A stretch of 32,000 bases of DNA from Candidatus Scalindua sp. (GCA_031316235.1 JALDRA010000001.1:1830001-1862000); one strand, 5' to 3'. Shown: positions 10,555 to 28,641, numbered from the stretch's first letter. Notes: generated from the letters alone by a model not told the origin. Translations and numbers: made by a program.

Positions 10555-10641
10555 ATATACTAAAACCAAGTCCTGGTGAAGGTATACTCGCTCAATTTTG
10601 TCTCGGATTTTATCCGAAATTCAGTATGAGATGAGTATACT
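10555..10641 (-). repeat. dispersed hairpin repeat, copy 1 (subfamily I, short form lacking hairpin 2)
   Basis: The plus strand reads ATATACTAAAACCAAGTCCTGGTGAAGGTATACTCGCTCAATTTTGTCTCGGATTTTATCCGAAATTCAGTATGAGATGAGTATACT. Its reverse complement matches copy 3 at about 94% identity, apart from a clean 28-nt absence of the long hairpin. Confidence 0.9.
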
Positions 10642-10875
10642 ACCTGAGTTTTTGCAAAAGACCTTTAAACAGATAGAGCCGACAGGCAGCCAGAGGTGCC
10701 CGCCTGAACCAACTGTATAAACCTCGTGTTTAAAAAGCTTTCAAATACCCCGTCCCCTTGCATCTTTAGACGTTAAGAGCGAAAAAAGCAGAGATGGTTA
10801 CCCTTTCTCTATACACTCTCTCACGATGGAGCCGTTTCGCCGGTTCCAGCAGACATACACACCTGACTGCATACT

Positions 10876-11148
10876 TCAATTGAGCTTATGCAGTCCGTTT
10901 TCAACAAGGTGTTTTGGCTCTACTGAAGCACCGTTTATGGAATAAACACTGGATGCAATCCTCTCATTAGCGATCCTGCATTTATCGCAGATGCGGTTGT
11001 ATGGCCCTTCACTGATGAACTTTTTGTCACATCTCAAACAGTACCTCTTCTCTTTTGATTTTCTCCTTGCCGGTTTACACACTTTATGTGTCTCTTTTGA
11101 TTTACTCTCTTTACGGTTAATATTTATACATTTTGATATATTTTTCAT
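10876..11148 (-). CDS. small basic zinc-ribbon protein (CxxC-x16-CxxC), function unknown
   Basis: The 90-aa ORF has a strong SD (GGAGGTG) 7 nt upstream of the ATG. The N-terminus is Lys/Arg-rich. It is followed by YCLRCDKKFISEGPYNRICDKC. Confidence 0.6.
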   Translation of the reverse strand: MKNISKCININRKESKSKETHKVCKPARRKSKEKRYCLRCDKKFISEGPYNRICDKCRIANERIASSVYSINGASVEPKHLVENGLHKLN

Positions 11149-11302
11149 GGTTTTTCACCTCCGCCATCACAAACAATACTTTTCCTTGAGAAGTTCCCAA
11201 AATTTTCCCCATTTTTCCGGAAGGTTTTAATAATTCTCATGATTTACAGGTTTCTATTTTATGTTTGTTGACATTTTCACCAGTTTTACTAGAATCTGTT
11301 CC

Positions 11303-12433
11303 ATGCAAAATAATGAGGCGCTTTTAATTATTGCAGATAGCGAAAAAGATTCTAATATGTTTTATGCTACAGGTTTTTCAGCACCTGATCCTTTTATTTA
11401 TCTTCAGTATGTTGATAAAAAGATCATGGTCATACATGACCTTGAAATAGACCGTGCAAAGTCTCAATCTAAGACAGAAAAGGTCCTTTCCCTTTCAAAA
11501 TACGAAAAAATTGCGGCACGACAAAATAGAAAACCTCCAGAACTGATCGAAACCGTTATGGTTATATTAAACGAAATTAAAATAAAAAAGCTTATAGTGC
11601 CTGAAAATTTCAGTATAAAATATGCAGATGCGCTACGAAAAAACGGATTTGAGCTGGAAGTCAGGCAGGAGCCCCTCTTTCCTGCCAGAGAGATTAAAAA
11701 CAAACAGGAAATAAGGTATATAACCAGGGTTCTACGAACAACCGAGAAAGTTCTTTCGAAAGCAATTGATTCCATAGCAAACTCTTCCATCAAAAATGGT
11801 TTTTTGTACACCAGGCATGGCAAAGCAATTACCTCAGAATCGGTAAAAAAAATGATAAATGTTGAATTAATGAAAAATAGCTGTACAGCCAAGCACACTA
11901 TTGTATCCTGCCATGAACAATCATGCGAACCACATAATGTAGGAAGCGGACCGTTAAGGGCCAACGAGTCTATCATATTTGATGTTTTTCCGAAAGATGA
12001 AGAAACAGGGTATTACGCAGACATCAGCAGGACTATTGTCAGGGGGAAAGCTTCTCTTTCACTTAAGAATATGTACAAGGCTATAGAGTCTGCTCAGAAC
12101 TTAGTATTCAAATTAGCCAAAAGCGGTGCTGACGGCAGCAATATCCATAGTAAAGTTGTCCACCATTTAAAGTCACTTGGATATACAACAGGAAAGACCG
12201 GGGGTAGAATGAGAGGTTTTTTTCATGGAACCGGTCATGGAGTCGGCCTTGATCTCCACGAAACTCCACGAATTTCCCGTTCGAAATATACCTTAATGGC
12301 AGGAAACGTGGTTACCGTTGAACCGGGGCTCTACTATCCAGGCATTGGAGGAGTAAGACTTGAAGACATGATACATATTACCGATGACGGATGTATCAAT
12401 TTGACGAAATTTCCAAAGATACTGGAAGTATAA
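11303..12433 (+). CDS. M24-family Xaa-Pro aminopeptidase/dipeptidase
   Basis: This is ORF 11261..12433. I prefer the ATG at 11303 (MQNNEALLIIADSEKDSNMFYATGF, a creatinase/prolidase N-domain style). The M24 metal-ligand pattern is present: FDVFP..YYADISRT, HGTGHGVGLDLHE, VVTVEPG, GVRLEDM. Confidence 0.85.
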   Translation: MQNNEALLIIADSEKDSNMFYATGFSAPDPFIYLQYVDKKIMVIHDLEIDRAKSQSKTEKVLSLSKYEKIAARQNRKPPELIETVMVILNEIKIKKLIVPENFSIKYADALRKNGFELEVRQEPLFPAREIKNKQEIRYITRVLRTTEKVLSKAIDSIANSSIKNGFLYTRHGKAITSESVKKMINVELMKNSCTAKHTIVSCHEQSCEPHNVGSGPLRANESIIFDVFPKDEETGYYADISRTIVRGKASLSLKNMYKAIESAQNLVFKLAKSGADGSNIHSKVVHHLKSLGYTTGKTGGRMRGFFHGTGHGVGLDLHETPRISRSKYTLMAGNVVTVEPGLYYPGIGGVRLEDMIHITDDGCINLTKFPKILEV

Positions 12434-12456
12434 GATAAATCTAGCAGAACTTGTTT

Positions 12457-12626
12457 TATACTCATCTTATACTGGTTTTCGGATAAAATCCGAGAAAAAA
12501 CGGAGCGAGTACAGGTCCTCGGCGTTTTTTGTCCGGGGAAAGCCCTCGGCAAGCTTTTGTCAGGGGATAACAGCAACCAGGCTTCGGTTTTGAGAAAAAT
12601 CTAAAACCAAAGCGGTTTCAGTATAC
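12457..12626 (+). repeat. dispersed hairpin repeat, copy 2 (subfamily II, long form with duplicated insert module)
   Basis: The sequence is TATACTCATCTTATACTGGTTTTCGGATAAAATCCGAGAAAAAACGGAGCGAGTACAG, then two roughly 28-nt units (12515-12541 and 12542-12570), then ...CAGCAACCAGGCTTCGGTTTTGAGAAAAATCTAAAACCAAAGCGGTTTCAGTATAC. It starts 24 nt after the peptidase stop and ends 37 nt before the next start. Confidence 0.9.
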
Positions 12627-12662
12627 ATGCATTTTTTCTCCTTTTTTAAAGAGGTGTGACAT

Positions 12663-13178
12663 TTGTCCTGTTTTCAAAAATACCATCGACAAAAAAGGGG
12701 AAAAATTTTACCCATACTGACAGTTATTCTTGGAATGTTCACGTCATTGAGCGCCTGCAATAAATCTGAAGAGATAAAAGATGCAGAAAAATCTCCTTCG
12801 TTTGCTGCAGAATCGGATCCGGGAGAGAACAGTCTTAAAAATGCCATGAAAAAGACATCCAGGGACGTACGGCGGTTATCAAAGGCCCTGGAGAAAAAAG
12901 ATTGGGTTGAAATAGAGATGTGGGCAGAAGAGCTGAAACGTGGCATTGGAGCCAGTTGTGTAAACTTGTATATAAAAAACCACTCAGGTGCCTCAGGTGA
13001 ATTTATTATATTGGGTGACAGATTTTATAACGCTGCCAACAAATTGACCATTTCCTGCCAAAACCATGACATTCAGGCTGCACATACCGAATTTAATATG
13101 ATGCTGAAGTCATGTGATGATTGCCATGAAGGCTACAAAGAAAGCAGAGAAGCAGGGAGCAAGAGCATTGTTAACTGA
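12663..13178 (+). CDS. class II cytochrome c (cytochrome c'-like) lipoprotein
   Basis: The 171-aa ORF has a single CxxCH heme c motif near the C-terminus in the cytochrome c' context (SCDDCHEGYKE). The body looks helical. The N-terminus is lipoprotein-like (ILPILTVILGMFTSLSAC). A TTG start is preceded by AGAGGTG. Confidence 0.55.
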   Translation: MSCFQKYHRQKRGKILPILTVILGMFTSLSACNKSEEIKDAEKSPSFAAESDPGENSLKNAMKKTSRDVRRLSKALEKKDWVEIEMWAEELKRGIGASCVNLYIKNHSGASGEFIILGDRFYNAANKLTISCQNHDIQAAHTEFNMMLKSCDDCHEGYKESREAGSKSIVN

Positions 13179-13200
13179 AATAGTTGCCCAACACCTTCCG

Positions 13201-13458
13201 CTACTCATCTTCATCTTCTTCATCTTCTTCATCTTCTTCATCTTCTTCATCTTCTTCATCTTCTTCATCTTCTTCATCTTCTTCACCAGGGGCTTCTACC
13301 TCAGATCCGGTTTTCTTGCCAGTACCAAAAAGATCACCCGCTCCGATAAAGAAGGCAGTTGCCGACACACCAAGTATAAGAAGGCACACAAAACCACCCA
13401 ATTTCCGAATAATATCATTCATCATGATACTGTCTAACTTTTTAAAAAGCTGTTCCAT
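13201..13458 (-). CDS. small single-pass membrane protein with poly-acidic (EED)8 C-terminal tail
   Basis: The 85-aa ORF has an AGGAG SD 7 nt upstream of the ATG at 13458. It contains one hydrophobic helix (GGFVCLLILGVSATAFFIGAG). The tail reads GEEDEEDEEDEEDEEDEEDEEDEEDEDE. Confidence 0.6.
   Translation of the reverse strand: MEQLFKKLDSIMMNDIIRKLGGFVCLLILGVSATAFFIGAGDLFGTGKKTGSEVEAPGEEDEEDEEDEEDEEDEEDEEDEEDEDE
13204..13284 (-). repeat. 9-bp coding tandem repeat (TTCTTCATC on plus strand, about 8 units)
   Basis: Direct reading of 13204-13284 shows CTCATCTTCATC followed by (TTCTTCATC)n. On the minus strand it encodes (EED)n. On the plus strand it generates spurious poly-Ser and IFF-repeat ORFs. 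Confidence 0.95.
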
Positions 13459-13512
13459 CGGTATCTCCTAAATAAAAAATGGCTATAGATTACGATCGCT
13501 AAAACAGGTGGA

Positions 13513-13540
13513 ATTATACATTTTTACAATAAAAATTCAA
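13513..13540 (-). promoter_or_regulatory. sigma70-like promoter candidate, TTGAAT-16-TATAAT, for the acidic-tail protein gene
   Basis: The minus strand reads TTGAAT (13540-13535), a 16-nt spacer, then a perfect TATAAT (13518-13513). This lies about 55 nt upstream of the ATG at 13458. Confidence 0.4.
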
Positions 13541-13645
13541 GAGATAATTCATTTATCTACTCTTAAATTCTGAACCAAAGCAAAACCTAAGTCAAGCATA
13601 TCCTGATGAGCTCTTTTAAAATTGCACTACGGCTTATTTCAAAGC

Positions 13646-14005
13646 TTAGGGGGTAATTGATTCTACTCTGAGTTTTTTTTTAAACTTCAAGGCTACCCCA
13701 TATTTTGTACCGTATCCGTTCACCTCTCTTTCATCAGCATTTATATCTGTCCTGATAATCACGCCAGATCCTGTAAGCCTTACCGTCTTGTTCGGTAAAT
13801 CGGATTCAGTTGAAGATATAGTTATTTCAAGTGCAAAAGTTTTCCCGATGGAAAACTTTTTGATATCCTCTTTTATTACCTCAAAATAGACACCTCCTGA
13901 ACAGATATTCTTTGATCTGATCTGATGGTCATTTAACCTGATTTGTACCGCCTGTTTCCGTCGTTGGTCTGCACGTCTCTCTTCTGCCCTTGAAAAGTTA
14001 TCCAT
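13646..14005 (-). CDS. PilZ-domain-like protein (putative c-di-GMP binding)
   Basis: The 119-aa ORF has an N-terminal Arg-rich RxxxR-type stretch (ERRADQRRK). It is followed about 25 residues later by NICSGGVYF, which resembles the (D/N)xSxxG PilZ motif with Cys in place of Ser. The size fits a stand-alone PilZ protein. Confidence 0.5.
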   Translation of the reverse strand: MDNFSRAEERRADQRRKQAVQIRLNDHQIRSKNICSGGVYFEVIKEDIKKFSIGKTFALEITISSTESDLPNKTVRLTGSGVIIRTDINADEREVNGYGTKYGVALKFKKKLRVESITP

Positions 14006-14009
14006 TTAT

Positions 14010-14122
14010 TATACTCATCTCATAATGGTTTTCGGATAAAATCCGAGATAAAATTGAGCGAGTATACCTTCACCAGGATTTGGTTTCCGGTAAAACCGGA
14101 AACCAAATCAGTTTTAGTATAT
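14010..14122 (+). repeat. dispersed hairpin repeat, copy 3 (subfamily I, canonical form)
   Basis: The sequence is TATACTCATCTCATAATGGTTTTCGGATAAAATCCGAGATAAAATTGAGCGAGTATACCTTCACCAGGATTTGGTTTCCGGTAAAACCGGAAACCAAATCAGTTTTAGTATAT. It contains hairpin 1 (TCGGAT-AAA-ATCCGA) and a perfect 15-bp hairpin 2 (14077-14091 paired with 14095-14109). It differs from copy 6 at 3 of 113 positions. Confidence 0.95.
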
Positions 14123-14274
14123 ACCCAACCAATTATAGTGCCAATCAACCCACAAAAAAATAAACCCGTTGCGCGCAGTGAATTCAAGCCACATTAAGCT
14201 CTGCACCCTTTCGCCAGAAGTTCAGAAAAGATGAATTCTCCTTAACTGGTGTCGACAATGCCATACAAAGGCGT

Positions 14275-15648
14275 TCATTTTGCGCAGCGAAATCCAATAC
14301 CTTTATTTCCAAGTCTCGGATCCACGGCCTTTCTCGCTGTGGCTCTCAGCAAAAGACCAGTACGGGCAAATCGAGAGCCTCCCCGAACACTCTTTTTTAT
14401 CCCTTCCTCAGGCCCCTGCGGATTTTTCTTCGGACTTACCGTATAGTATAATACATCTGCCCAGTCAGAGCACCACTCCCCCACACTGCCTGCCATATCA
14501 TAGCAACCAAATGCGCTCTTCCCCTCTTCATAACTCCCAACCGGTTTAGGGTCCCCAGGTTCAGAACTGCCAACATTACATTTCTCTGGGTCCCATATGT
14601 TTCCCCATGGCCACTTTCTTTCATCTCCCCCCCGAGCAGCCTTTTCCCATTCAGCCTCTGTTGGCAATCTCTTCCCTGCCCATTTCGCATATGCAAACGC
14701 ATCATACCAATCAACCCTCATTACGGGAAACTCAGGATTGTTAAAATAATCATCTGCCCAATTTGAAGGAACATGACTTTTGTCCGCAGGCTCATCTTCA
14801 TGACATTTGCTATGGTCTGAAGATGCCTCCATGTATTCCAGAAATTCATAATATTGGGCATTTGTCACCTCATACCTGTCAATATAGTATCCATCCAGGT
14901 AAACTTCATGGCTTGGTCTCTGTTCTATCTTGACATCATCAAACCCCATGATAAACGGACCTGCCGGAACAAAAACCATAGTACATTTTTCCTTAATTCC
15001 CGGCAAAGCATTCTTCATAACCGTGTCTCTTTTTTCTTGAGATTCCGCTAATTCATTTTTCCTGTCTATAATGGACTGCAATACTGACATTTTTAAAAGG
15101 ACCTTATCCCTGTCTTCTGCTTCAGGTTGCAGTATGCAGTAGTTCCTGAAGTGCTCTATAGCTTTTTCTGGCGCTCCAATCTTCCCGTAGAGCCATGCTG
15201 TATTGAATTGAAGTTCTGGTATGTCGGGATATAAGTCGATAGCTTTTTTATACTCTCTCAGAGCCTTATCAAACTCTTCTTGATCTGAAAAAGTGTTGCC
15301 CTTTTTTAAACATTTCGAGGCTTCCGATTTATTTTCAAGATGTTTCTGTTCATTGGCAATGACCTCTTCAGCGGTTAACAGTTTTCCACCATCTTCCCTG
15401 CAGAACTCCTCACCAGAAAAACCACTCTTTCCGCAGACAGAACAAAGAGGAAGCTTTTCAGTTTTTATTAATTCGCTCCCGTCTTTACCGCAAAACTTGA
15501 CATTATTTGAGTAATTAGTACCACACTTGGGGCATTCATTAACCGGTTCACTATTTGGATGTACCGTCTCAGCACTTGTTACCGATACAAGAAACATCAA
15601 ACAAAACGCCAGTAGTAATTTAAGCCAAAATATTTTTATGTAAATCAT
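14275..15648 (-). CDS. formylglycine-generating enzyme (SUMF1/EgtB/PvdO) family protein with N-terminal double zinc-ribbon and TPR-like region
   Basis: The 457-aa ORF starts with a signal-like N-terminus (MIYIKIFWLKLLLAFCLMFLVSVTSAE). Two CxxC..C zinc-ribbon units follow (CPKCGTNYSNNVKFCGKDG and CSVCGKSGFSGEEFCREDG). The C-terminal FGE-sulfatase-domain motifs are RLPTEAEWEKAARGG, GNIWEW-type GSVGEWCSDW and RGGSRF. The 5' end overlaps the valS 3' end by 29 nt. An alternative ATG lies at 15597. Confidence 0.8.
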   Translation of the reverse strand: MIYIKIFWLKLLLAFCLMFLVSVTSAETVHPNSEPVNECPKCGTNYSNNVKFCGKDGSELIKTEKLPLCSVCGKSGFSGEEFCREDGGKLLTAEEVIANEQKHLENKSEASKCLKKGNTFSDQEEFDKALREYKKAIDLYPDIPELQFNTAWLYGKIGAPEKAIEHFRNYCILQPEAEDRDKVLLKMSVLQSIIDRKNELAESQEKRDTVMKNALPGIKEKCTMVFVPAGPFIMGFDDVKIEQRPSHEVYLDGYYIDRYEVTNAQYYEFLEYMEASSDHSKCHEDEPADKSHVPSNWADDYFNNPEFPVMRVDWYDAFAYAKWAGKRLPTEAEWEKAARGGDERKWPWGNIWDPEKCNVGSSEPGDPKPVGSYEEGKSAFGCYDMAGSVGEWCSDWADVLYYTVSPKKNPQGPEEGIKKSVRGGSRFARTGLLLRATARKAVDPRLGNKGIGFRCAK

Positions 15649-18352
15649 CCAGGATATCCTTTACCTTCTCTATCTGCCCTAGCAACTCTGCCTCTTTCTC
15701 TTTTTCTGCATTAACAATGTGCAGAGGTGCATTCTTGATAAAATTTTTGTTTAAAAGCTTTTTTCTCACAATGGTTAGATGGGATTGAAGTTTTTTACTG
15801 TGGTCAAGCTGTTTCTTTCTTTCTGCCTCTGGATTAATAAGCCCTTTTAAAGGGACAAAAATCTGTATGTTTTCAACTACTTCACTTGCGGCAGAATCGG
15901 GTTTTTTCCTGTTAATTCCGATATCTATCTCCTCAAGATTTGCCATTTGAGACAAAAAGACATGATGTTTATCCAGCCGGTCTTTCATTTCATTATCAGG
16001 TACAGAGATTAACATTTTCAATGGCTGCTTTGAAGGAATTTCCATGTTACACCTGATATTTCTTATTGCCCTTATCAGATTTTGAAGCAATAGCATTGTT
16101 TCGGTAACATTGTGTATCTTTACCCCTTCTGATAGAGACACAGAGTCCTGGACACTGATTGATAGATTTGAATCGGGCCACGGTGATATTATCAGGCTTT
16201 CGTTCGCCATGGATTCAGTTGCAATCAGTCCATTCTTTCCCACAAGACTTTTTACACCTTGCCATATCTCTTCGGTAAAAAATGGAGCAAAAGGATGCAA
16301 AAAACGCAGTATATTGTCCAGTACATGTGTTAACGTTTTAAGCGCTACTATTCTACTCTTCGCATCTGCAGAATTATAGAGACGAGGCTTTACAATCTCC
16401 AGATACCAGTCACAAAACTCATTCCATATAAATTCGTAAAGGCTTTTTATTGCCTCATTAAACCGGTATTTCTCCAGAGCTGAAGTACACGCTGCGGTTA
16501 CAAGAGACAGACGGTTGAGAATCCAGACATCCTCAAACTCGTAATCCTCCTGTTCAATTTTTACTGCTAAAGGTTCATCAAAGGTAAGATTCATCATGAC
16601 AAATCGAGCAGCATTCCAGACCTTGTTAATAAAATTCCTCCCCATTTCAAACCTGTTTTCATGGAGTTTGATGTCCTGACCCTCAACGGTCAGCATGATA
16701 AGAGAGATTCTGACAGCGTCCGCACCGTACTGGTCTATCATCAATAAGGGATCAATACCGTTACCCAAAGACTTACTCATTTTTCTTCCCAGGTCGTCAA
16801 GGATTGTGCCGTGGATATACACATTACGAAACGGAATATCTCCGTTGAGCTCTAATCCCATCATAACCATCCTTGCCACCCAAAAGTATATGATCCCCCT
16901 ATCTGTTACCAGGGTGGATGTCGGGTAGTAATATTGCAGCTCTTCTTTCTTTTCGGGCCATCCCATGGTGGAAAAAGGCCATAGTGCGGAACTGAACCAT
17001 GTGTCCAAAACATCTCCATCCTGCTCAAGTTCACTGTTTCCGCATTTTGCACACTTTTCAACCTCTTCGCTGCTGATATGTGTTTCACCGCAACCTTTAC
17101 AATGCCATGCAGGGATCCTGTGACCCCACCATATCTGCCGTGAAATGCACCAGTCCCGAACATTTTCCAGCCAACTTAAATATACTTTTGTCCACCGTTC
17201 GGGGTAAAATGTTACACACCCTTTATCTTGGACCTCAATTGCCGCCCTTGCTAAAGGTTTCATCCTGATGAACCATTGGTCGGAAAGATATGGTTCGGTT
17301 ACGGTTCTGCATCGGTAGCAATGTCCTACAGAGTGAGAATAGGGCTCAACTTTTATGATATGTTTCGCCTCTTTCAGCTCCTCAACCAATGCTTCCCGGC
17401 ACTCGAATCTATCCATCCCCTTATAGCCAGAGACATCACCTGCCATTGTTCCATCTTCATTCATGATCAGAATTGATTCCAGTTTGTGCCTCTTACCAAT
17501 ATCAAAATCATTTTGATCGTGTGCGGGTGTAATCTTTACCGCCCCGGTACCAAAAGCAGGATCAACCGATTCATCCGCAATTATCGGGATTTCCCGCCCG
17601 ACTACGGGAAGCATGAGAATTTCACCGATCATCTCCTTATATCTCTCATCGTTTGGATTCACGGCAACGGCAACATCACCTAACATAGTCTCAGGGCGAG
17701 TTGTTGCAATAGTGAAAAACAGATGGGGAGAATCACGAAATGGGTACCGAATATACCAGAGATGCCCTTCGTGGTCTTCATGTTCTACCTCATCATCAGA
17801 TAGTGCTGTATGACATCTCGGACACCAGTTAATGATATATTTCCCCTTATATATCAATCCTTTTTCATACAGGGCAACGAAGGCTTCTCTTACGGCCTTT
17901 GAAAGACCGGCATCCATCGTAAACCTTTCCCTCTCCCAATCGCAGGAACTTCCCAATTTCCTTAATTGTTTCAGGATTTCAGAGCCGTATTCATTCTTCC
18001 AACTCCATACTTTCTCGATAAACTTTTCCCGTCCAATCTCTGCACGGCTCAAGCCTTTTTTCAACAGCGCCCGTTCAACTACATTCTGGGTAGCAATACC
18101 AGCATGATCAGTTCCCGGCATCCATAAGGTGTTATAGCCCTGCATTCGTCTCCATCGTATGAGGATGTCCTGCAAGATGTTGTTTAAGGCATGTCCCATG
18201 TGGAGAACCCCGGTTATATTTGGCGGGGGAATAACGATACTATACGGTTTTTTTGCAGCATCAGGTGCACTGTGAAAAAATCCACCCTTTTCCCAAAAGC
18301 TGTACCACTTGTCTTCAATCTCTTTGGGGTTATATTTTGTTGGTAATTCCAT
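15620..18352 (-). CDS. valS: valine--tRNA ligase
   Basis: The 910-aa ORF has the class I HIGH-type motif (PPPNITGVLHMGHAL) and KMSKS. It also has an editing-domain region and a C-terminal coiled coil typical of ValRS. Confidence 0.97.
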   Translation of the reverse strand: MELPTKYNPKEIEDKWYSFWEKGGFFHSAPDAAKKPYSIVIPPPNITGVLHMGHALNNILQDILIRWRRMQGYNTLWMPGTDHAGIATQNVVERALLKKGLSRAEIGREKFIEKVWSWKNEYGSEILKQLRKLGSSCDWERERFTMDAGLSKAVREAFVALYEKGLIYKGKYIINWCPRCHTALSDDEVEHEDHEGHLWYIRYPFRDSPHLFFTIATTRPETMLGDVAVAVNPNDERYKEMIGEILMLPVVGREIPIIADESVDPAFGTGAVKITPAHDQNDFDIGKRHKLESILIMNEDGTMAGDVSGYKGMDRFECREALVEELKEAKHIIKVEPYSHSVGHCYRCRTVTEPYLSDQWFIRMKPLARAAIEVQDKGCVTFYPERWTKVYLSWLENVRDWCISRQIWWGHRIPAWHCKGCGETHISSEEVEKCAKCGNSELEQDGDVLDTWFSSALWPFSTMGWPEKKEELQYYYPTSTLVTDRGIIYFWVARMVMMGLELNGDIPFRNVYIHGTILDDLGRKMSKSLGNGIDPLLMIDQYGADAVRISLIMLTVEGQDIKLHENRFEMGRNFINKVWNAARFVMMNLTFDEPLAVKIEQEDYEFEDVWILNRLSLVTAACTSALEKYRFNEAIKSLYEFIWNEFCDWYLEIVKPRLYNSADAKSRIVALKTLTHVLDNILRFLHPFAPFFTEEIWQGVKSLVGKNGLIATESMANESLIISPWPDSNLSISVQDSVSLSEGVKIHNVTETMLLLQNLIRAIRNIRCNMEIPSKQPLKMLISVPDNEMKDRLDKHHVFLSQMANLEEIDIGINRKKPDSAASEVVENIQIFVPLKGLINPEAERKKQLDHSKKLQSHLTIVRKKLLNKNFIKNAPLHIVNAEKEKEAELLGQIEKVKDILDDLHKNILA

Positions 18353-18442
18353 TTTTTCCTTAATAATAGTAATTTTTCAGAAATTCATATTCTCTCTTTT
18401 TTTTAAAAACATACACGCGAACAGGATAAACCATGCAGACCT

Positions 18443-20428: not shown

Positions 20429-20442
20429 TATACCATATGAAC

Positions 20443-20459: not shown

Positions 20460-20541
20460 ATATCCACTTTGTACGCTCGACAGGCCTTTTAATATTTTTG
20501 TATTTCAATTTAAGTGAAATACCGGTAGAATTGTACATTTC

Positions 20542-20680
20542 TCTACTCACTTTATAGTGGTATTCGGATAAAATCCGAGAAAAAAGAGCGAGTAAAGTCC
20601 TTGGCGTATTTTGTCCGGGGATACCAGTAACCGCGTTTTGGTTTTTAGAAAAATCTAATACCAAATCGGTTTTAGTATAT
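20542..20680 (+). repeat. dispersed hairpin repeat, copy 4 (subfamily II, single insert module)
   Basis: The sequence is TCTACTCACTTTATAGTGGTATTCGGATAAAATCCGAGAAAAAAGAGCGAGTAAAGTCCTTGGCGTATTTTGTCCGGGGATACCAGTAACCGCGTTTTGGTTTTTAGAAAAATCTAATACCAAATCGGTTTTAGTATAT. It ends 36 nt before the radical SAM start codon. Confidence 0.9.
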
Positions 20681-20715
20681 GTAAGATAAAAAATTTAATA
20701 GTATGAGGGTATAAG

Positions 20716-21912
20716 ATGAAAAGTATACAGAAAAAGAGCCCAGACCATCACAACAGGGAAGAGGGAACAATTAAGGATGTTTACGGGAAGATAAAAGACC
20801 ACGACCACTCTAAGGTCTCTCAGCAATATATGAAAAATATGAAAAACCAGCTTCGTCTTGTGTTCTGGGAAACAACTGCGGGTTGTAATCTGGAATGTAT
20901 CCACTGTAGAAGGCTAGACGTAAGTACCCAGCTGGCCAATGACGATCTGACCACAAAAGAGTCATTCGAGCTCGTCGACGCTATAGCCGAAGCAGGCAAC
21001 CCGATCCTTGTCTTAAGCGGGGGAGAACCTCTTTTTCGCCCAGACATATTCGATATTGCGAAACACGCAGTGGATAAAGGTTTAACCGTGGCACTAGCTA
21101 CCAATGGAACCCTGGTAGACGAAGCCATGGCCAGGAAAATTGTGGATGCCGGGGTATCCAGGGTTTCCATTAGCCTTGACGGCGCCGACGCTGAGACCCA
21201 TGATAAATTCCGCAAACTAAAGGGTTCATTTGAACAGGCCATCAGAGGGTTCAACCATTTAAAAGCACAGGGTATGGGCATGCAAGTTAACTGTACGATT
21301 GCAAAACACAATGAAAATCAGCTTCGTGACCTCTATAACCTTGCCGTAAAACTGGGCGCCGAGGCCATTCACATATTCATGCTCGTTCCGGTAGGTTGCG
21401 GGGTTGAAATTGCCGACGACCAGATGCTGGCCCCGGAAAGGTACGAAGAACTGCTGAACCTTTTTTATGATTTATCCAAAGAAGCGGTTATCCAGACAAA
21501 GGCAACCTGTTCACCTCACTATTTCAGGATAATGCGCGAGCGAGCAAAAGAAGAGGGTATTAAAATTACACCAAAAACACATGGAATGGCCGCAATGACA
21601 AAAGGTTGTCTTGCTGGAACCGGAGTGTGCTTTGTCTCTCATAAAGGAGAAGTTTTCCCCTGTGGATATCTGCCTGTTGAAGCCGGACACATCAAAAAAC
21701 AGAAATTTAAAGATATCTGGAAGGACTCTGCTGTCTTTGCCAAACTCAGAGAACCGGATTTGCTTGGAGGAAAGTGTGGTGAATGCGAATATAAAAAGGT
21801 TTGCGAAGGATGCAGAGCCCGTGCGTTTTATGAAACAGGGGATTATATGGCAGAAGAGCCATACTGTATATACAAACCGAAGCTTATGAGCAAGGGAGAA
21901 ACCGTAGGATAA
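20716..21912 (+). CDS. radical SAM/SPASM-domain enzyme, NirJ/AhbC/AhbD-like
   Basis: The 398-aa ORF has a CxxxCxxC cluster (TTAGCNLECIHCRR), a SAM-binding region (LSGGEPLFRPD) and a C-terminal SPASM-type Cys cluster (CLAGTGVCFVSHKGEVFPCGYLP...GGKCGECEYKKVCEGCRARAF). A GAGGG SD precedes the ATG. Confidence 0.8.
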   Translation: MKSIQKKSPDHHNREEGTIKDVYGKIKDHDHSKVSQQYMKNMKNQLRLVFWETTAGCNLECIHCRRLDVSTQLANDDLTTKESFELVDAIAEAGNPILVLSGGEPLFRPDIFDIAKHAVDKGLTVALATNGTLVDEAMARKIVDAGVSRVSISLDGADAETHDKFRKLKGSFEQAIRGFNHLKAQGMGMQVNCTIAKHNENQLRDLYNLAVKLGAEAIHIFMLVPVGCGVEIADDQMLAPERYEELLNLFYDLSKEAVIQTKATCSPHYFRIMRERAKEEGIKITPKTHGMAAMTKGCLAGTGVCFVSHKGEVFPCGYLPVEAGHIKKQKFKDIWKDSAVFAKLREPDLLGGKCGECEYKKVCEGCRARAFYETGDYMAEEPYCIYKPKLMSKGETVG

Positions 21913-22101
21913 CAATTGTAGCTCTGTTTTTAAAGTGGCCGCATCTCTGAGCCAGCCTCACGTGAGTCAGAGACCGGTCGAAACAAATCTGACAACTTCA
22001 ACGTACACCTATTTTTTTATCCCGTAAAGGGAAAGTCTGAAAAGATCATGTGTGCGTTTCTTTATAGTGGTTCTTTTAAGGCCGGGTTGGGAGTATTAAT
22101 C

Positions 22102-23061
22102 ATGCATAAATGTCTAAAATTCTTTTGTTGCTTACTCATTGGTTTAACATCCTCTTCTCTCTTCTCAGGAAAAGAGGCCTTCTCAGAGCAGGACCTGCTT
22201 CAAGAGAAAAATATCCGTGAATCTGTCGCAGCCGGACGCTTCTATCCGGACACTGCAGGTGAACTGAGAAAAGAGATAAACACTCTTTTGGGTAAGGAGC
22301 GCACCGAAGACTTACAAGGCAAGCCCCTAGCAATAATTTCACCACATGCAGGCTATCAGTATTCTGGTTCCGTTGCAGCATATGGATATCGTGCAATAAA
22401 GAACTATAGCTATAAAAGAGTCATCGTAATTGGGCCTAGTCATTACTCCAGATATATAGGGGCCTCAATCCCTGACGTTAGTTACTACAAAACACCCTTA
22501 GGATTGGTAAAGGTTGATCAGGGGATATGCAACAACCTCATCAACAACCCACCAATGTTAGGCACATTTAAAAATGCACACCTGAGAGAACATTCTCTGG
22601 AGATACAATTGCCGTTCTTACAGGAAACACTCAAGGATTTCAAACTTATCCCTATACTGGTAAGCAAACTCAACAATGAAACAATAGAGTTAATTGCAGA
22701 GAAAATCAAACCGTTTATTGATGAAGAGACCCTGATCGTTGTAAGTTCTGATTTCACCCATTATGGTCCTTCGTATGGCTATGTTCCAAAATTCAAAGAT
22801 GGTGATGTAAAGGAAAATATTCAAAGGCTTGACTATGGAACGTTTGAACGCATCCTTGCAAAGGATCTGAATGGTTTAATCAGATACAAACAGGCTACGA
22901 GGATAAATGCTTGCGGGTTTATGCCAATTGCATTGTTATTAAAACTCTTACCCAGTGATGCCCGCGGAAAGGTACTGAATTACGATTCTTCCGGCAATCA
23001 AACAGGGAATTTTGAGAATTCTGTAAGTTACGCTTCAATTGTTTTTACCAGTGGAGAGTAA
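22102..23061 (+). CDS. MEMO1-family protein (AmmeMemoRadiSam system protein B type) with signal-peptide-like N-terminus
   Basis: This is ORF 22048..23061. I prefer the ATG at 22102 (MHKCLKFFCCLLIGLTSSSLFSG). Memo motifs present are AIISPHAGYQYSG, EHSLEIQLPFL, VSSDFTHYG and NACGFMPI. Confidence 0.8.
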   Translation: MHKCLKFFCCLLIGLTSSSLFSGKEAFSEQDLLQEKNIRESVAAGRFYPDTAGELRKEINTLLGKERTEDLQGKPLAIISPHAGYQYSGSVAAYGYRAIKNYSYKRVIVIGPSHYSRYIGASIPDVSYYKTPLGLVKVDQGICNNLINNPPMLGTFKNAHLREHSLEIQLPFLQETLKDFKLIPILVSKLNNETIELIAEKIKPFIDEETLIVVSSDFTHYGPSYGYVPKFKDGDVKENIQRLDYGTFERILAKDLNGLIRYKQATRINACGFMPIALLLKLLPSDARGKVLNYDSSGNQTGNFENSVSYASIVFTSGE

Positions 23062-23222
23062 TGTTCTGATAGTTACTGCAAATCTTCAGGCTTGCAGTAA
23101 AGAGGGATTAACGGCATTTGCCAGGCCAGAGGTTTTTTTCTGCTGATGAATTTAATGACAATACCATTTACCATCAATTTTACCCTTTTTCCTCTTTTTA
23201 TTCGTTACGATTCCATGTTCCC

Positions 23223-23771
23223 ATGAATAGCGCAGAAAAGGGAATATTACTCGATATCGCAAGAAATAGTATTAAATCTGCAATTCAAGGCACACCAATC
23301 GATGCTACTCAATTCCAGGGCAATACTCAGAAATCCAAAACAGGGCACGGCGTATTTGTCACCTTAAGAACTAACGGGAAATTGAGAGGATGTATCGGTC
23401 GGCTCGTTTCGCATAAACCTTTGAGAAAACTTGTTTCAGAGATGGCGGTATCAGCAGTATCAGAAGATACCAGATTTGAGAACAACAGAATCAAAATTTC
23501 GGAATTAAATGATCTTAAGATAGAGATCTCTGTCTTATCTCCTCTGAAAACACTTGAGAACCCCCTCGAACTTGAACTCGGCCGGCATGGAGTTTACATT
23601 AAGAGAGGCAGTAAAAGCGGATGCTTTTTACCACAGGTTGCCTCAGAGACGGGTTGGTCAAAAGAGGAATTTCTGTCAAAATGCTGCTACACAAAAGCAG
23701 GTTTGCCGCCAGATGCCTGGAAAGACGAAGGTACCGAGGTTTATATCTTTACTGTAGAGACTATTTCATAA
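23223..23771 (+). CDS. AMMECR1-domain protein (AmmeMemoRadiSam system protein A type)
   Basis: This is ORF 23118..23771. I prefer the ATG at 23223, giving 182 aa. The AMMECR1 signature GVFVTLRTNGKLRGCIG is present, followed later by HGVYIKRGSKSGCFLPQV. Confidence 0.8.
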   Translation: MNSAEKGILLDIARNSIKSAIQGTPIDATQFQGNTQKSKTGHGVFVTLRTNGKLRGCIGRLVSHKPLRKLVSEMAVSAVSEDTRFENNRIKISELNDLKIEISVLSPLKTLENPLELELGRHGVYIKRGSKSGCFLPQVASETGWSKEEFLSKCCYTKAGLPPDAWKDEGTEVYIFTVETIS

Positions 23772-23858
23772 CCTGTAATGAATCACACGTTTATGGCTCC
23801 TTCAGCCGGCAGCAAAGCTCCCGTTAGCTTTTACGTACCCATCTGCATCTACCCATCA

Positions 23859-24539
23859 CTACCTGGGCTTGACGGTATTAGACGTCATGATCTTGCTTCT
23901 GACTATACTATATGCAGCTATAATTACGCCTAACCCCAGAAGCAGGAATGGAAAATTATCGCGAACCGCGTTCTTACCATTAAACACAAGTTCCGCGTAA
24001 GTCATGTCGCTGGAGATCGAGGCGAGATAATATCCAGTAAGCACAAGTATGACCGACCAGATACCTGCACCAAGGAGCGTAAAAAATGCAAAACGAAATA
24101 GAGCCATTTTGGCAAGGCCTGCGGGAATTGATATAAGCTGACGGATGGCGGGAAGCAATCGACAGACAAACGTTGTAATATCCCCATATCTGTTGAAAAT
24201 TTCTTCGGATCTTTCAATAGTTGGTGGCGACAAAAAAAAGTATTTCCCGTATTTGTATAAAAAGGGCCGCCCAAACCTTAACGATAGAAAATAATTGATG
24301 GAAGCTCCCAACAGCGAACCTGCTGTTCCACAGATTATGACTATGAGTGAATCTGTAACCGGAGATGCAAAAAATAATTCATGCCGATATGCAAGAAAAC
24401 CACCTGGAATCATGACCACTTCACTCGGAAAGGGAATAAAAGAACTTTCTATGGTCATACAGAGAAAGACAAAGAGAAAGCCCCACAGATGGGCATGCCG
24501 TACACCCCATTCAATATATTGCACACAGAAATCAGTCAT
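23859..24539 (-). CDS. DedA/VTT-domain family membrane protein
   Basis: The 226-aa multi-pass membrane ORF contains ESSFIPFPSEVVMIPGG, FGRPFLYKYGKY and RLLPAIRQLISIPAG, which is the typical DedA motif layout. Confidence 0.85.
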   Translation of the reverse strand: MTDFCVQYIEWGVRHAHLWGFLFVFLCMTIESSFIPFPSEVVMIPGGFLAYRHELFFASPVTDSLIVIICGTAGSLLGASINYFLSLRFGRPFLYKYGKYFFLSPPTIERSEEIFNRYGDITTFVCRLLPAIRQLISIPAGLAKMALFRFAFFTLLGAGIWSVILVLTGYYLASISSDMTYAELVFNGKNAVRDNFPFLLLGLGVIIAAYSIVRSKIMTSNTVKPR

Positions 24540-24607
24540 TACTATAATTTGCGCTATATGTTATATATGGTTCCCGAAAAACTCCTGTTCACGGCAAGAA
24601 AATTTAT

Positions 24608-25603
24608 CTATTCTTCCCGGAACAACATAGTCTTTAATACATCAAGGATGAGTTGCTGTACAACATCAATATCACCGTTTACCTCGCATCCAGCGGCATA
24701 TTTATGACCACCCCCACCAAACCTTTTTGCAACGGCGTTGACATCATAACCGTTTCGACTCCGCAGGCTCACTTTAATTCGATTATGCTGTGCCATCTCA
24801 CGAAGTAATACCCCTACGGATACAGTGTCTATTGAGACAGGAATGTCGGCAAACTCATGAGTATCGAGAGCGTTGACGTTGGTTTTTTCCAACATTTTAT
24901 TGGTCAGCCAGAGTGTGGCTACCTGATTTTTCATATGAAGCTTAAGTGTGTCAAGGGCCAGTGATTGCAACCGAATCTGATAAAAAGAATTAGCATTGTA
25001 AATGTGCTTGGAGATCTCTGAATGTCTTGCCCCTTGCTCCATGAGAAATGCTGCTGCCCTGAGAGCTTCTGGTGTGGTGTTACTATGGACGAATCTACCT
25101 GTATCTGTAACGATAGCCACATAAAGGGCTGTAGCAATATCCGGTGTAATTTCAAGCTTCATCGCTCTTAAAAGGCTGAGGATAATCTCTCCTGTAGCGC
25201 ACACATCACTTGCCACCCAATTGATATCACCAAAATATTCACTGGAAATATGATGATCAATATTTATGATTGTTGCATTCTTCGGAAGTATCTTCTGTAT
25301 TTTACCCAGCCGTTCCAGGGTAGGACAATCCAGGACAAAAACAACCTCTGGATTCTCTTTGGGAATTTCCGGATAAATGAAAACATTGGTATTGTGTGTT
25401 ATAAATTCAAAAATCCTGGGCATAAAGGAGTTATTGGCAATCGTAACCGATTTTCCCATTTGCCTGAGTGCGTGATAGAGGGCTACCTCAGAACCAATGG
25501 CGTCTCCATCTACCCGAATGTGAGTAGTAATGAGAAAATTGTTATGCTGCTTTATTGTTTCATGTATATCGTTTACATACTTTGTTACCGTAGAGTCTTT
25601 CAA
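24608..25603 (-). CDS. nrnA: DHH/DHHA1 phosphoesterase, NrnA-like oligoribonuclease/pAp phosphatase
   Basis: The 331-aa ORF carries the DHH-family motifs HIRVDGDAIGS, NIDHH, DTGRF and a C-terminal DHHA1 motif FGGGGHKYAAG. Confidence 0.8.
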   Translation of the reverse strand: MKDSTVTKYVNDIHETIKQHNNFLITTHIRVDGDAIGSEVALYHALRQMGKSVTIANNSFMPRIFEFITHNTNVFIYPEIPKENPEVVFVLDCPTLERLGKIQKILPKNATIINIDHHISSEYFGDINWVASDVCATGEIILSLLRAMKLEITPDIATALYVAIVTDTGRFVHSNTTPEALRAAAFLMEQGARHSEISKHIYNANSFYQIRLQSLALDTLKLHMKNQVATLWLTNKMLEKTNVNALDTHEFADIPVSIDTVSVGVLLREMAQHNRIKVSLRSRNGYDVNAVAKRFGGGGHKYAAGCEVNGDIDVVQQLILDVLKTMLFREE

Positions 25604-26098
25604 ATTATACTCTTCCTCTGGTTAAAATATTTCTAAAATCTATTAACAGGTGCAGTAAATTGTACAGACCGCCTCTGTTTTCTTCAACAGTTGGCTGTTA
25701 TCGTTCACTCTGTGTTGCGAAATACTGCACCCAAACCGGAAAAGGCTCTCATATTATAGAACTTATTGGTTACTCTTGAGGCTCACCTCAGCCATTTACC
25801 CGGATCCTCTTTTCACGCAACGCTTCAACGAAGCCGGCACTCAAAGCTTCAGGTAATAGTACTATACACACAGGTAAAAGTAAATGTAAATAAATGAATG
25901 CGAATGCCACACCTGAATCATGAAACAAAATCATACGCAAAAGAGGCAGATTTCAGCATGAAAAATCAACGTGCATAAAAAAATAGTTGAATTCTTTCTG
26001 CATATCGTTTAAGTTTTATCAAGCCTTGCCTGTTAATTCGCGGTAATTCCAGCTTTTTTTCTCCGTGGCTTGTCAAATGGCACTAAAAATGCGCATTT

Positions 26099-26212
26099 AG
26101 TCCTGAATCGAGCGATTTTCACCTGACAGTCCCGACGGGTTTGGCAGGCAGAGTGGTTTTACTTACGTTCTCATGTTCCCGAAACCCTGAAAGCCGCTCG
26201 ATTCAGGACTAT
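26099..26212. repeat. 114-bp element bounded by perfect 17-bp inverted repeats, in the ahcY leader (candidate MITE or structured leader RNA)
   Basis: TAGTCCTGAATCGAGCG at 26099-26115 is the exact reverse complement of CGCTCGATTCAGGACTA at 26196-26212. The terminal TA dinucleotides could instead be a TA target-site duplication flanking 15-bp TIRs. The element ends 46 nt before the ahcY ATG. Confidence 0.85.
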
Positions 26213-26257
26213 TCAACTTTATATTATTCGATATCGTTTTTCTATGAGGAGTATTGT

Positions 26258-27664
26258 ATGACAAGTGATAACTGTGGAGTAGCTGACCTTAATTGTGCTG
26301 TTAGTGAAAAAAAAGGAGACTTTAAAGTCGCTGATATCAGTTTGGCAGAGTGGGGAAGAAAGGAAATTGCCATTGCAGAAGCTGAGATGCCGGCCCTGAT
26401 GGCTTTACGGAAGAAGTATTCCCCGACTCAACCGCTACGCGGAGCAAAAATTATAGGCTGTATCCATATGACAATACAGACAGCGGTCTTGATAGAAACG
26501 TTAATAGCTTTAGGCGCTGAGGTTCGATGGTCTTCGTGCAATATCTTTTCGACGCAGGACCATGCAGCGGCTGCCATGGCTGCCGCAGGAGTTCCTGTTT
26601 ATGCCTGGAAAGGACAAACCAACGAAGAGGGTGAATGGTGCATTGAACAGACTATCCTCAAAGACGGCAAGCCCTGGGATGCCAATATGCTGCTTGACGA
26701 TGGCGGTGATTTAACGTTAATGGTTCATGAAAAATACCCTGCCATGCTTGATAAAATTCATGGAATAACCGAGGAGACTACAACGGGCGTGCATCGATTG
26801 CTGGAAATGCTTGAGAAGAAAACTCTCAAGGTCCCCGCCATCAATGTAAACGACTCGATTACAAAATCAAAAAATGACAACAAGTATGGTTGCCGCCACA
26901 GTTTAAATGATGGGGTGAAACGAGGCACCGATATGCTGCTTGCCGGCAAAAAAGCACTTGTTATCGGTTATGGGGATGTCGGTAAAGGATCTGCCCAGAG
27001 TTTGCGTCAGGAAGGGATGATCGTCAAGATTTCAGAGATTGATCCTATTTGTGCAATGCAGGCCTGTATGGACGGCTATGAAGTAGTTTCACCCTATAAC
27101 AACGGGAAAAATACAGGCAAGGTTGAAGATATTGACAAGGCACTTCTTGGTCAACTTGATCTTATTGTAACTGCTACGGGCAATCTAAATGTTTGCGATG
27201 CCCAGATGCTGATGACGGTAAAATCGGGTTCGGTGATTTGCAATATTGGCCATTTCGACAATGAAATTGACACACAATTTCTGCGGGAAACCTATGAATG
27301 GGAGGAGGTAAAACCTCAGGTGCACAAAATCTACCGTAACCGTGAACTCAATAACTACTTGATTCTTTTGTCTGAAGGAAGACTTGTAAATCTCGGCAAT
27401 GCAACTGGCCACCCATCACGGATTATGGATGGCTCTTTTTCCAATCAGGTCCTGGCACAGATGTTCCTGTACGAAAAAAAATGGGCGGATACGAAAACTG
27501 GTGATATCAGTGTCACCGTACTCCCGAAAAAACTTGATGAGGAGGTGGCACGTGATATGGTCGAGGGTTTTGGAGGCATAATCACACACCTCACGAAACA
27601 GCAGGCCGCGTATATTAACGTACCGATAGCGGGTCCTTTTAAGTCTGGAGATTATAAGTACTAG
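26258..27664 (+). CDS. ahcY: adenosylhomocysteinase
   Basis: This is ORF 26141..27664. I prefer the ATG at 26258, which is preceded by GAGGAG. The product contains [27 protein letters not shown] and the NAD-binding motif [15 protein letters not shown], and ends in ...GDYKY. It is about 468 aa. Confidence 0.95.
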
Positions 27665-27970
27665 GGAGAGACCGTAAAAATTTTTGTCTCCACTGCAATC
27701 CTTCCTGCACTACCGGTCCGGTTAACGTTATGACATTTCCTGCTTATGATGCCTGTCATTTGAGAATTCGTCATGCGGAGCTGTGCTCCGCATAACCGGG
27801 CGGAGGCTTGTCCAGATTATTGTCTCATACAGGGCATAATAAACCCCTAATCTTGGTGCGCAGAATTTGAGGGATATGGGAAGTGAATGAGGCTTAAAGG
27901 GAGAAAGAGGCTGAATACGCTTCATTATGCCACCTGAATCTTTCGATGAAACGCGGTATGGTTTAAAATC

Positions 27971-28055
27971 CACTAAAACCAAAGCCTGATTGGTAGCATA
28001 CCCGTTCCGTTTTTTCTCGGATTTTATCCAAAAACCATTATAAGGTGAGTATACT
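27971..28055 (-). repeat. dispersed hairpin repeat, copy 5 (subfamily II, short form lacking hairpin 2 and the insert)
   Basis: The plus strand reads CACTAAAACCAAAGCCTGATTGGTAGCATACCCGTTCCGTTTTTTCTCGGATTTTATCCAAAAACCATTATAAGGTGAGTATACT. On the minus strand it begins 6 nt after the stop of the lipoprotein gene. Confidence 0.85.
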
Positions 28056-28060
28056 TAAGA

Positions 28061-28402
28061 TTAAGGCATATACCCCCTCTTGAGGAGTTCCTGCCTCATA
28101 ATCTCCAATCTCTGTTCTAATTTATTGATTTTAGCCGAGTTTTTCTGCTTCTCCCCATGACCATTAGCTGTATTCCCACTTGAAGATCTGGGAAAATCCG
28201 TGTTGCCTTTCCCAGAAGGGCCCTTAACCATGTATAACTCAAGATCTGTTGCATAGTACTTGTCAATCAACTCCTGGTCAGATAGTTTATCTACAGGTTT
28301 AAGAGCTGTGCAAGCAAAGAGTAAGGCTGGAATAAGGAGAAATATGATTGTTTTTATTGTTTTCACCTTCGCAATGCTATACAATCTTTCAAATAATTTC
28401 AA
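28061..28402 (-). CDS. hypothetical lipoprotein
   Basis: This is a 113-aa ORF starting at a TTG at 28402. An internal GTG at 28366 would give VKTIKTIIFLLIPALLFAC, a textbook lipoprotein signal with lipobox LLFAC. The mature part is low complexity with a C-terminal coiled-coil-like segment. I recognise no family. Confidence 0.5.
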   Translation of the reverse strand: MKLFERLYSIAKVKTIKTIIFLLIPALLFACTALKPVDKLSDQELIDKYYATDLELYMVKGPSGKGNTDFPRSSSGNTANGHGEKQKNSAKINKLEQRLEIMRQELLKRGYMP

Positions 28403-28527
28403 GTCGAAATGACTAAGCCCTTACCATAAATTGTTGTTGCAGGTACAGCGAGAGCCCAACGATGAAACGATGTTTAAATACTGAGGATGAAAAGTGTTTG
28501 ATGAGCAACGCGTCCGGAAGACGCAGG

Positions 28528-28641
28528 ATATACTAAAACCGATTTGGTTTTCGGTTTTACCGGAAACCAAATCCTGGTGAAGGTATACTCGCTCAATTTT
28601 ATCTCGGATTTTATCCGAAAACTATTATGAGATGAGTATAT
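28528..28641 (-). repeat. dispersed hairpin repeat, copy 6 (subfamily I, canonical form)
   Basis: The plus strand reads ATATACTAAAACCGATTTGGTTTTCGGTTTTACCGGAAACCAAATCCTGGTGAAGGTATACTCGCTCAATTTTATCTCGGATTTTATCCGAAAACTATTATGAGATGAGTATAT. Its reverse complement is 97% identical to copy 3. Confidence 0.95.

Follow-up and report, generated by a model that had tools for sequence, protein, structure and literature searches.

A miniature element of probable IS630/Tc1-mariner type inserted at TA sites in Candidatus Scalindua and its relatives

A 32,000-nt stretch of DNA from Candidatus Scalindua sp. (GCA_031316235.1 JALDRA010000001.1:1830001-1862000), here called the window at its full length, holds six copies of one hairpin-rich repeat family. 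The six repeats are very probably copies of a non-autonomous DNA transposon, namely a MITE (miniature inverted-repeat transposable element) of the IS630/Tc1-mariner type that has spread in Scalinduaceae by insertion at TA dinucleotides. We favour this reading because the element has sharp ends, duplicates TA as seen at empty sites, carries inverted terminal repeats, occupies sites that differ between species and shares its genomes with a related insertion sequence (IS) of the IS630 family. The original prediction, drawn from the window alone, had offered three readings: a MITE or a repetitive extragenic palindromic (REP)-like element, a structured RNA, and a terminator or insulator module. The MITE part of the first is strongly supported, the REP part and the structured RNA find no support, and termination is at most a side effect in one orientation.

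Target sites, ends and internal modules

We scanned a collection of species-representative genomes with TTYGGATAAAATCCGAGA, an exact 18-mer from the small hairpin of the element, and obtained at least 120 stretches. The loci named below (L001 and so on) are 8-kb blocks fetched through exact matches to this 18-mer, and the sample is biased accordingly: the conservation of the small hairpin and the high identity between species are partly artefacts of the selection. Copies were located with nhmmer, using window copies 2 and 3 as queries and the fetched loci together with the window as targets. Genes in the fetched loci are simple longest-open-reading-frame calls.

The flanks of each copy were joined and searched against the other loci, which yielded the empty sites that the original prediction had proposed to look for. 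Two loci, L008 and L016, have the element within a 150-nt repeat. The many intact paralogues of this repeat, among them L001, L119, L064 and L101, read CCTTG-TA-CCTGGG, and the filled sites read CCTTG-TA-(element)-TA-CCTGGG. The same pattern, a single TA without the element and two with it, is seen when L066:5565-5703 is compared with L082, and L092:2743-2854 with L025. From these three filled/empty comparisons among paralogous repeats, it follows that the element inserts at TA and duplicates it. Species also differ in the sites that are occupied. In the single orthologous region that could be compared, genes of the window and of Scalindua RBC_AMX3 are ~80% identical over 5.7 kb, with the element at different sites: copy 3 lies upstream of an open reading frame (ORF) of 119 aa in the window, where RBC_AMX3 has no copy, and RBC_AMX3 has an inverted copy downstream of this ORF, where the window has none. 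Copy 4 is likewise missing from the orthologous RBC_AMX3 spacer upstream of the radical-SAM gene (L044). At these orthologous empty sites, base resolution was only partly reached because the intergenic DNA is too diverged, and the paralogous sites were used instead.

The ends of the element are sharply defined. Over 109 complete copies, a conservation of at least 96% extends through TA-TACTC on the 5' side and AGTA-TA on the 3' side, and it falls to background one base further out; TA is found on both sides in ~105 of the 109. The element proper runs from TACTC… to …TTTTAGTA, and it has no coding capacity. Its ends are imperfect inverted repeats of ~24 nt, the 5' repeat TACTCATCTCATAATGGTTTTCGG being identical at 16 of 24 positions to the reverse complement of the 3' repeat, TACTAAAACCGATTTGGTTTTCGG, and the two share the tip TACT and the block TGGTTTTCGG. 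The short terminal inverted repeat TATACT/AGTATA that was predicted from the window consists of the duplicated TA and the first 4 nt of the longer imperfect repeats.

Within the window, we searched for direct and inverted repeat families with a repeat finder, read each site and built a multiple alignment. The six predicted copies were all recovered, with coordinates within 2 nt of those first given. In the window, chance would give 0.10 occurrences of the invariant 15-nt core GGATAAAATCCGAGA and 0.00 of the 5' end TATACTCATCTCATAATGG when as many as 3 mismatches are allowed; the observed numbers are 6 and 5. The refined coordinates listed here take in the flanking TA on each side.

10556-10639 (-), copy 1: 84 nt, short form made of the 5' module and the 3' terminus, lacking the long 3' hairpin
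12457-12625 (+), copy 2: 169 nt, long form in which module A (AAGTCCTCGG..TTTTGTCCGGGGA-like) is present twice in tandem
14010-14121 (+), copy 3: 112 nt, canonical form, with TA duplications at 14010-14011 and 14120-14121
14012-14035 (+), 5' terminal inverted repeat of copy 3: TACTCATCTCATAATGGTTTTCGG
14030-14048 (+), small subterminal hairpin of copy 3: TTTTCGGAT-AAA-ATCCGAGA
14077-14109 (+), long hairpin of copy 3: 15 bp, followed by AGTTTTAG; top terminator-like site in the regional scan
14096-14119 (+), 3' terminal inverted repeat of copy 3: two differences from the consensus (reverse complement) TACTAAAACCGATTTGGTTTTCGG
20542-20679 (+), copy 4: 138 nt, with one module A and the 5' TA mutated to TC
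27969-28053 (-), copy 5: 85 nt, short form, with the 3' end decayed to AGTGGA
28529-28640 (-), copy 6: 112 nt, canonical form, with 3 differences from copy 3

The alignment of the six copies shows a common 5' module, the invariant small hairpin and a variable middle. Each terminal repeat has an internal copy with which it can pair; the small hairpin at the 5' side and the long hairpin at the 3' side are the result. The 'optional long hairpin' of the original prediction is present, in four of the six copies and followed there by TTTTAGTATA, but it is better described as the 3' terminal repeat paired with its internal copy. Copies 1 and 5 lack it, and their sequence looks like the product of a deletion between repeated GGTTT/GTTTT motifs. 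The predicted fold of copy 3 has a free energy of -42.5 kcal/mol, and the hairpins are far more stable than those of shuffled sequence on both strands (z = -7.4 each). Two further statements about the window copies are borne out: copies 3 and 6 differ at 3 positions (97% identity over 113 nt), and the two subfamilies are genuine, their variants GAGATAAAATTGAGCG and GAGAAAAAACGGAGCG being found in other genomes as well.

Across the sampled loci, copies fall into size classes of ~57, 84, 112, 139, 165, 194 and 223 nt. The minimal copies, at L001:2897-2938 and L080:2681-2732, are the two ends fused with nothing else between them. The larger classes contain discrete inserts. Module A is AAGTCCTCGGCGCCTTTTGTCCGGGGA, with a single occurrence in window copy 4 and two in copy 2; another insert is module B; and the GC-rich hairpins G1-G3 are located in hairpin loops. 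A census by blastn-short in the sampled DNA placed the occurrences inside and outside the element at 56:0 for A, 9:0 for B, 6:0 for G2, 15:6 for G1 and 8:4 for G3, with several of the outside hits directly abutting element intervals. The modularity of the element is real, and in the sampled DNA the modules are essentially exclusive to it. They always lie in the hairpin loop just 5' of TAAAA(C/T)C and have no TA duplication of their own.

In copies elsewhere, breaks and module insertions recur in the loop of the small hairpin. Solo 5' fragments (TATACTCATCTCATAATGGTTTTCGGATA|…) occur at L012:7665, L064:3129, L067:5881(-), L086:5274 and L088:6333, and each of them is broken at the TA of this loop or beside it. 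In Scalindua SCAELEC01, a 5' fragment broken in the small-hairpin loop, which together with its flank duplicates L114:3875, lies directly upstream of L114:5284-6258(+), a gene for a 325-aa protein with an IS200-like Y1/HUH domain (Y1_Tnp, motif NHYHLLL) and a C-terminal helix-turn-helix (HTH). A different insertion is found in RBC_AMX3, where a MITE copy has its module A interrupted, between AAGTCCTCGGCGCC and TTTGTCCG, by L089:4512-6204, a frameshifted IS110-family element with the domains DEDD_Tnp_IS110 (4627-5478) and Transposase_20 (5521-5886). Elements of the IS110 family target repeats, as IS621 does in inserting into REP sequences.

Host range and a candidate IS630-family partner

The nhmmer search gave 145 hit clusters in the loci and the window. 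Six of these are in the window and 137 are in 98 8-kb blocks of six Scalinduaceae assemblies, which corresponds to at least 137 copies in the ~0.8 Mb sampled from these genomes. Thus, the genome search finds many copies beyond the six in the window. By genome, there are 68 clusters in Candidatus Scalindua SCAELEC01, 55 in Scalindua RBC_AMX3 and 12 in the Scalinduaceae metagenome-assembled genome (MAG) CBDCUS01, and one each in a Planctomycetota MAG, one further MAG and Candidatus Anammoxibacter. Among the matches listed, the family occurs only in Scalinduaceae, which are anammox Planctomycetota. In 22 loci from unrelated organisms, including a Kuenenia locus, the element was not found, and these are chance matches to the 18-mer. 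The window itself belongs to none of these genomes: exact matches to its proteins are confined to Logan assemblies of two sequencing runs, and its source is a Scalindua-like anammox bacterium. Copies lie mainly between genes: 132 of 143 (~92%) are outside ORFs of at least 100 aa, which was our criterion for an intergenic position. Canonical copies are 90% identical between species and 91% identical within a genome, compared with 78-84% for orthologous genes, and the between-species value is inflated because the loci were picked by an exact 18-mer.

The window encodes no transposase by a Pfam scan of its ORFs, as originally stated, and a partner was sought elsewhere. With the IS630 transposase of Shigella sonnei pSS_046 as seed, phmmer gave one match among all six-frame ORFs of the loci, L093:4759-5787 in a Scalinduaceae MAG (E = 5.8e-14). 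The protein is an IS transposase of 343 aa with the Pfam domains DDE_3, HTH_33 and HTH_29. Five more places in CBDCUS01 encode a protein that is nearly the same (P0001, 96% identity), which brings the IS to at least six copies there. The IS is ~1.12 kb long and reads TA|TACCGGTCGCGAAAAAGAATTCGAG … CCTAAAACCATTTCGTAATGAGTA|TA, with the ends TACCGG…/…GAGTA. In the five copies that were aligned, TA is found on both sides every time and the flanks are different at each copy. The IS is also found at a minimum of four contig ends of SCAELEC01, the genome richest in MITE copies. Thousands of homologues of the transposase exist, mostly on contigs of ~1.1-1.7 kb, as expected for a repeated IS. For the homologue P0035, named IS630 family transposase [Candidatus Scalindua sp.], no contig location was found.

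One end of the IS resembles those of the MITE. Over 24 bases, the right end of the IS (reverse complement TACTCATTACGAAATGGTTTTAGG) agrees with the MITE 5' end at 19 positions, and the relative in L131-L134 does so at 20; the binomial probability of at least 19 matches in 24 is ~3e-6. The MITE 3' end is also nearer to the right end of the IS (16-17/24) than to its left end (11-13/24). From this terminal similarity, the co-occurrence of the two elements and the established biology of IS630/Tc1-mariner transposons, we infer that the MITE is mobilized in trans by an IS630-family transposase through a cut-and-paste route. An IS630-family DDE transposase encoded elsewhere in the genome would bind both terminal repeats, excise the element and paste it into a TA dinucleotide, which would become duplicated on both sides. 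The size classes arise through loss of the long hairpin and through gain, loss or tandem duplication of internal modules. Any effects on neighbouring genes, such as termination by the long hairpin and its T-run in one orientation, would be a by-product.

An autonomous copy was also sought by pairing element ends spaced 0.6-3.5 kb from each other on either side of an ORF, and every candidate is an ordinary gene flanked by two separate copies. A 430-aa ORF in L089 is the antisense strand of the frameshifted IS110-family element in module A and is not the partner. For a 432-aa ORF in L101, Pfam gave no match, and its neighbours are other inserted repeats.

Several other repeats share these loci. 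A second MITE-like family of ~150 nt (TAGTGTTTGAACGAAAACTACCC … GGGTTTTCGTTCACGCACTA), with its own inverted ends, is very abundant in SCAELEC01 and is not in the window; its copies include L001:314-481, L119:4157-4313, L064:4427-4582, L101:1047-1204 and dozens more, and it is the source of the empty sites. An inverted-repeat family of ~182 nt (L013:4156-4337, L064:6545-6726, L068:5114-5295 and L063:4314-4494) has two ends that both resemble the 5' end of the element (4-5 mismatches in 26). At L101:~3850-4010, a MITE copy has its long hairpin interrupted by a member of an inverted-repeat family with the ends GTGTCCGGTTAGGTTTTTGC / GCAAAAACCGAACCGGACGC. The long repeats found between loci also include a fragment of DDE_Tnp_1 and a toxin-antitoxin pair (HepT/MNT), neither of which is related to the element.

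Alternative explanations and known elements

We considered what else could account for a family of this kind. The repeats might be MITEs in origin that have been kept as intrinsic terminators or as stabilizers of mRNA 3' ends, with the long hairpin followed by GTTTTAG in the consensus orientation; we regard this as fairly unlikely. The hairpin of copy 3 is the top terminator-like site in the window scan, its 15-bp stem being followed by AGTTTTAGTA, and its fold is very stable; however, terminator-like sites in the region as a whole equal the shuffled expectation (17 versus 16.9). The original prediction that five of six copies are co-directional with an adjacent gene does not generalize, since tandem gene contexts elsewhere hold 33 copies in the same orientation and 19 in the opposite one, a mild excess that is not significant (p = 0.07). 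The median distance to the upstream stop codon is 85 nt, and the copies are well conserved across species. On the other hand, a position between divergent genes, which calls for no terminator, is occupied by 34 copies (18 are between convergent genes), short forms such as copies 1 and 5 have no hairpin, and a C·A mismatch interrupts the upper stem of most copies (19 of 33). A terminating or RNA-stabilizing side effect in one orientation is possible, and it is unneeded to explain the family.

That the repeats are instead genes for small structured RNAs, acting as small RNAs or riboregulators, is very unlikely. Both strands fold strongly, and the mean column identity is 94% across 33 canonical copies, a set drawn from five assemblies with the window included and fitted by a two-domain fold that is 91% paired. 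In this set, however, covariation is not above shuffled controls, a test of low power given the small sample of 94% identical sequences: the score is 0.050 versus 0.047 in shuffles (102 of 500 shuffles are at least as high), and there are 4 covarying pairs versus 3.7. A double change in L008 and L016 keeps the outer stem paired as TACACTC/GAGTGTA, but this is a single event common to two duplicated copies, and the majority of departures disrupt pairing without compensation. The two strands have G·U-type wobbles in equal measure (48 versus 54), and copies lie in both orientations relative to genes. No Rfam family (Rfam 15) matches the whole window at the gathering threshold or the elements at E <= 1 (12400-14200), and the sharp TA-flanked ends and the empty sites explain the family without an RNA.

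Even less probable is a REP-like or IS200/IS605-type palindromic element, which would move as a single-stranded hairpin by a Y1 (HUH) transposase and leave no target duplication. Subterminal hairpins at both ends, the GC-rich hairpin modules in hairpin loops and the Y1_Tnp gene of L114 directly beside a 5' fragment are features that such an element could have. However, only 1 of ~145 copies adjoins a Y1 gene, and that one is a broken fragment. Moreover, the duplication of TA is a true one, filled sites having two TAs and empty sites a single one, the TA flanks are symmetric, and the termini are inverted repeats that match the end of an IS630-family IS. Membership in the REP/REPtron class, which is associated with REP-associated tyrosine transposases (RAYTs), was also rejected: the element is AT-rich, 84-169 nt long in the window and TA-duplicating, compared with a GC-rich palindrome of 20-40 nt.

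The IS630-type MITE reading is itself opposed by several observations. The origin of the internal modules is left unexplained by it. The left end of the IS is a weak match to the MITE ends (11-16/24), no transposase with ends identical to those of the MITE was found in the sampled loci and the IS630 searches, and the IS was seen neither in the window nor in the sampled parts of RBC_AMX3. The mobilizing enzyme is thus a candidate, a Scalinduaceae IS630-family transposase, and the exact parent is not among the ISs found; past mobility, too, is something we infer from comparisons of related sites. Finally, copies that are more similar between species than genes are could point to selection on their sequence, with the similarity inflated by the 18-mer sampling. 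It is also conceivable, but unlikely, that the element is more than a passive MITE, through a second process of loop-targeting insertion or template switching specific to these hairpins, or as a modular RNA or terminator cassette adopted by the host. If so, a bacterial MITE would serve as landing pad and scaffold for further mini-elements.

Among elements that are already described, the closest analogues are RUP, Correia elements and, in modularity, BOX and ERIC elements. Bacterial MITEs are characterized by terminal inverted repeats, a target-site duplication, a small size without a transposase gene, many intergenic copies and a stable fold (PMC3184786). The Scalindua element has all of these features, with imperfect repeats and sizes of ~57-223 nt. 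RUP, a 107-bp MITE of Streptococcus pneumoniae, duplicates TA, and its ends resemble those of an IS630-family IS presumed to mobilize it in trans. Like the Scalindua element, RUP is ~110 nt long with terminal inverted repeats and many intergenic copies (PMC3184786). The two have no sequence similarity, and the host phylum of the Scalindua element is Planctomycetota. The Scalindua element is also far more modular (~57-223 nt; modules A, B and G1-G3), and of the two ends of the related IS, it is the right one that both of its own ends resemble. In Neisseria, Correia elements (CREE) have 26-bp terminal repeats and a TA duplication. At ~104-157 bp, they are similarly very abundant, exist in long and short forms that differ by internal deletion, and often lie just upstream of genes, whose transcription Correia elements are able to affect (PMC3184786). 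Their sequence is unrelated, and they have documented promoters and an IHF site, whereas nothing comparable is shown in the Scalindua element. To our knowledge, Correia elements have no transposase partner, whereas the Scalindua element has the related IS630-family IS.

Other resemblances are more partial. BOX elements of S. pneumoniae have variable internal units between fixed end modules (67-637 bp), and TA flanks both termini of ERIC-type (ERIC/IRU) elements of enterobacteria (PMC3184786). Stable hairpins are predicted in all of them. BOX differs in lacking the classic architecture of inverted repeats and duplication, and the inserts of the Scalindua element are GC-rich hairpins within the hairpin loops of a TA-duplicating MITE. 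Closer to the host, IS630-family ISs are reported in the anammox genomes of Kuenenia, Brocadia and Jettenia KSU-1 (PMC7814187). The Scalinduaceae IS is like the MITE in its TA duplication and its termini (TACC/TACT…GAGTA); the MITE differs in being non-coding, with ~24 nt of terminal sequence in common with this IS. Full-text searches gave no paper that pairs Scalindua with 'miniature inverted-repeat', and among the anammox or Scalindua papers listed there is none that describes such a family. The family therefore seems undescribed, although the kind of element is well known.

Genomic setting and significance

The genes of the window are ordinary housekeeping genes, among them those for LptD, ComEC, ValRS, citramalate synthase, a radical-SAM/Memo/AMMECR1 cluster and S-adenosylhomocysteine (SAH) hydrolase. 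As the original prediction held, all six copies are intergenic with respect to Pfam-supported genes; the ORFs that they overlap are short ones, 27728-27982(-), which has no Pfam match, and 12334-12576(-). Copy 2 has an M24 peptidase gene on one side and a cytochrome c'-like gene on the other. Copy 4 ends 36 nt upstream of the start of the radical-SAM gene. Copy 5 starts 8 nt past the stop codon of a 113-aa ORF (28061-28402(-)), and copy 6 is in the divergent intergenic region between this ORF and a starch-synthase-like gene.

Three other features of the window were noted. The TetR-family ORF at 9865-10128(-), ~430 nt downstream of copy 1, has just 87 aa and the N-terminal HTH domain alone, probably as a result of truncation or a frameshift. 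Just downstream of the cytochrome c'-like ORF (12663-13178), positions 13196-13303 consist of ~10 tandem units of a 9-nt repeat (TCTTCTTCA). A 24-nt inverted repeat at 26098-26121 / 26188-26211, 92% complementary with arms 66 nt apart and without an Rfam match, encloses the TTG annotated as the start (26141) of the SAH hydrolase ORF; possible readings are a leader structure or an actual start further downstream.

With this family, the known IS630-derived MITEs gain a member from Planctomycetota, and no current concept is changed. Its practical consequences concern Scalindua, the main marine anammox bacteria, which are known only from enrichments and metagenomes. A MITE roughly every 10-20 kb helps to explain why Scalindua assemblies are fragmented. 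The related IS lies at contig ends of SCAELEC01. In addition, L122, a publicly available Logan contig of 2452 nt from the same organism as the window (SRR28338169_656515), stops 111 nt upstream of where the radical-SAM gene starts. This point falls just downstream of the place that copy 4 has in the window, which is consistent with the MITE breaking short-read assemblies. Masking of the family in annotation is advisable, as its hairpins can be mistaken for small RNAs or terminators. Presence or absence of an insertion provides a lineage-specific marker for strain typing. The copies also flag intergenic regions with possibly rewired regulation, such as that of copy 4 before the radical-SAM/Memo/AMMECR1 cluster.

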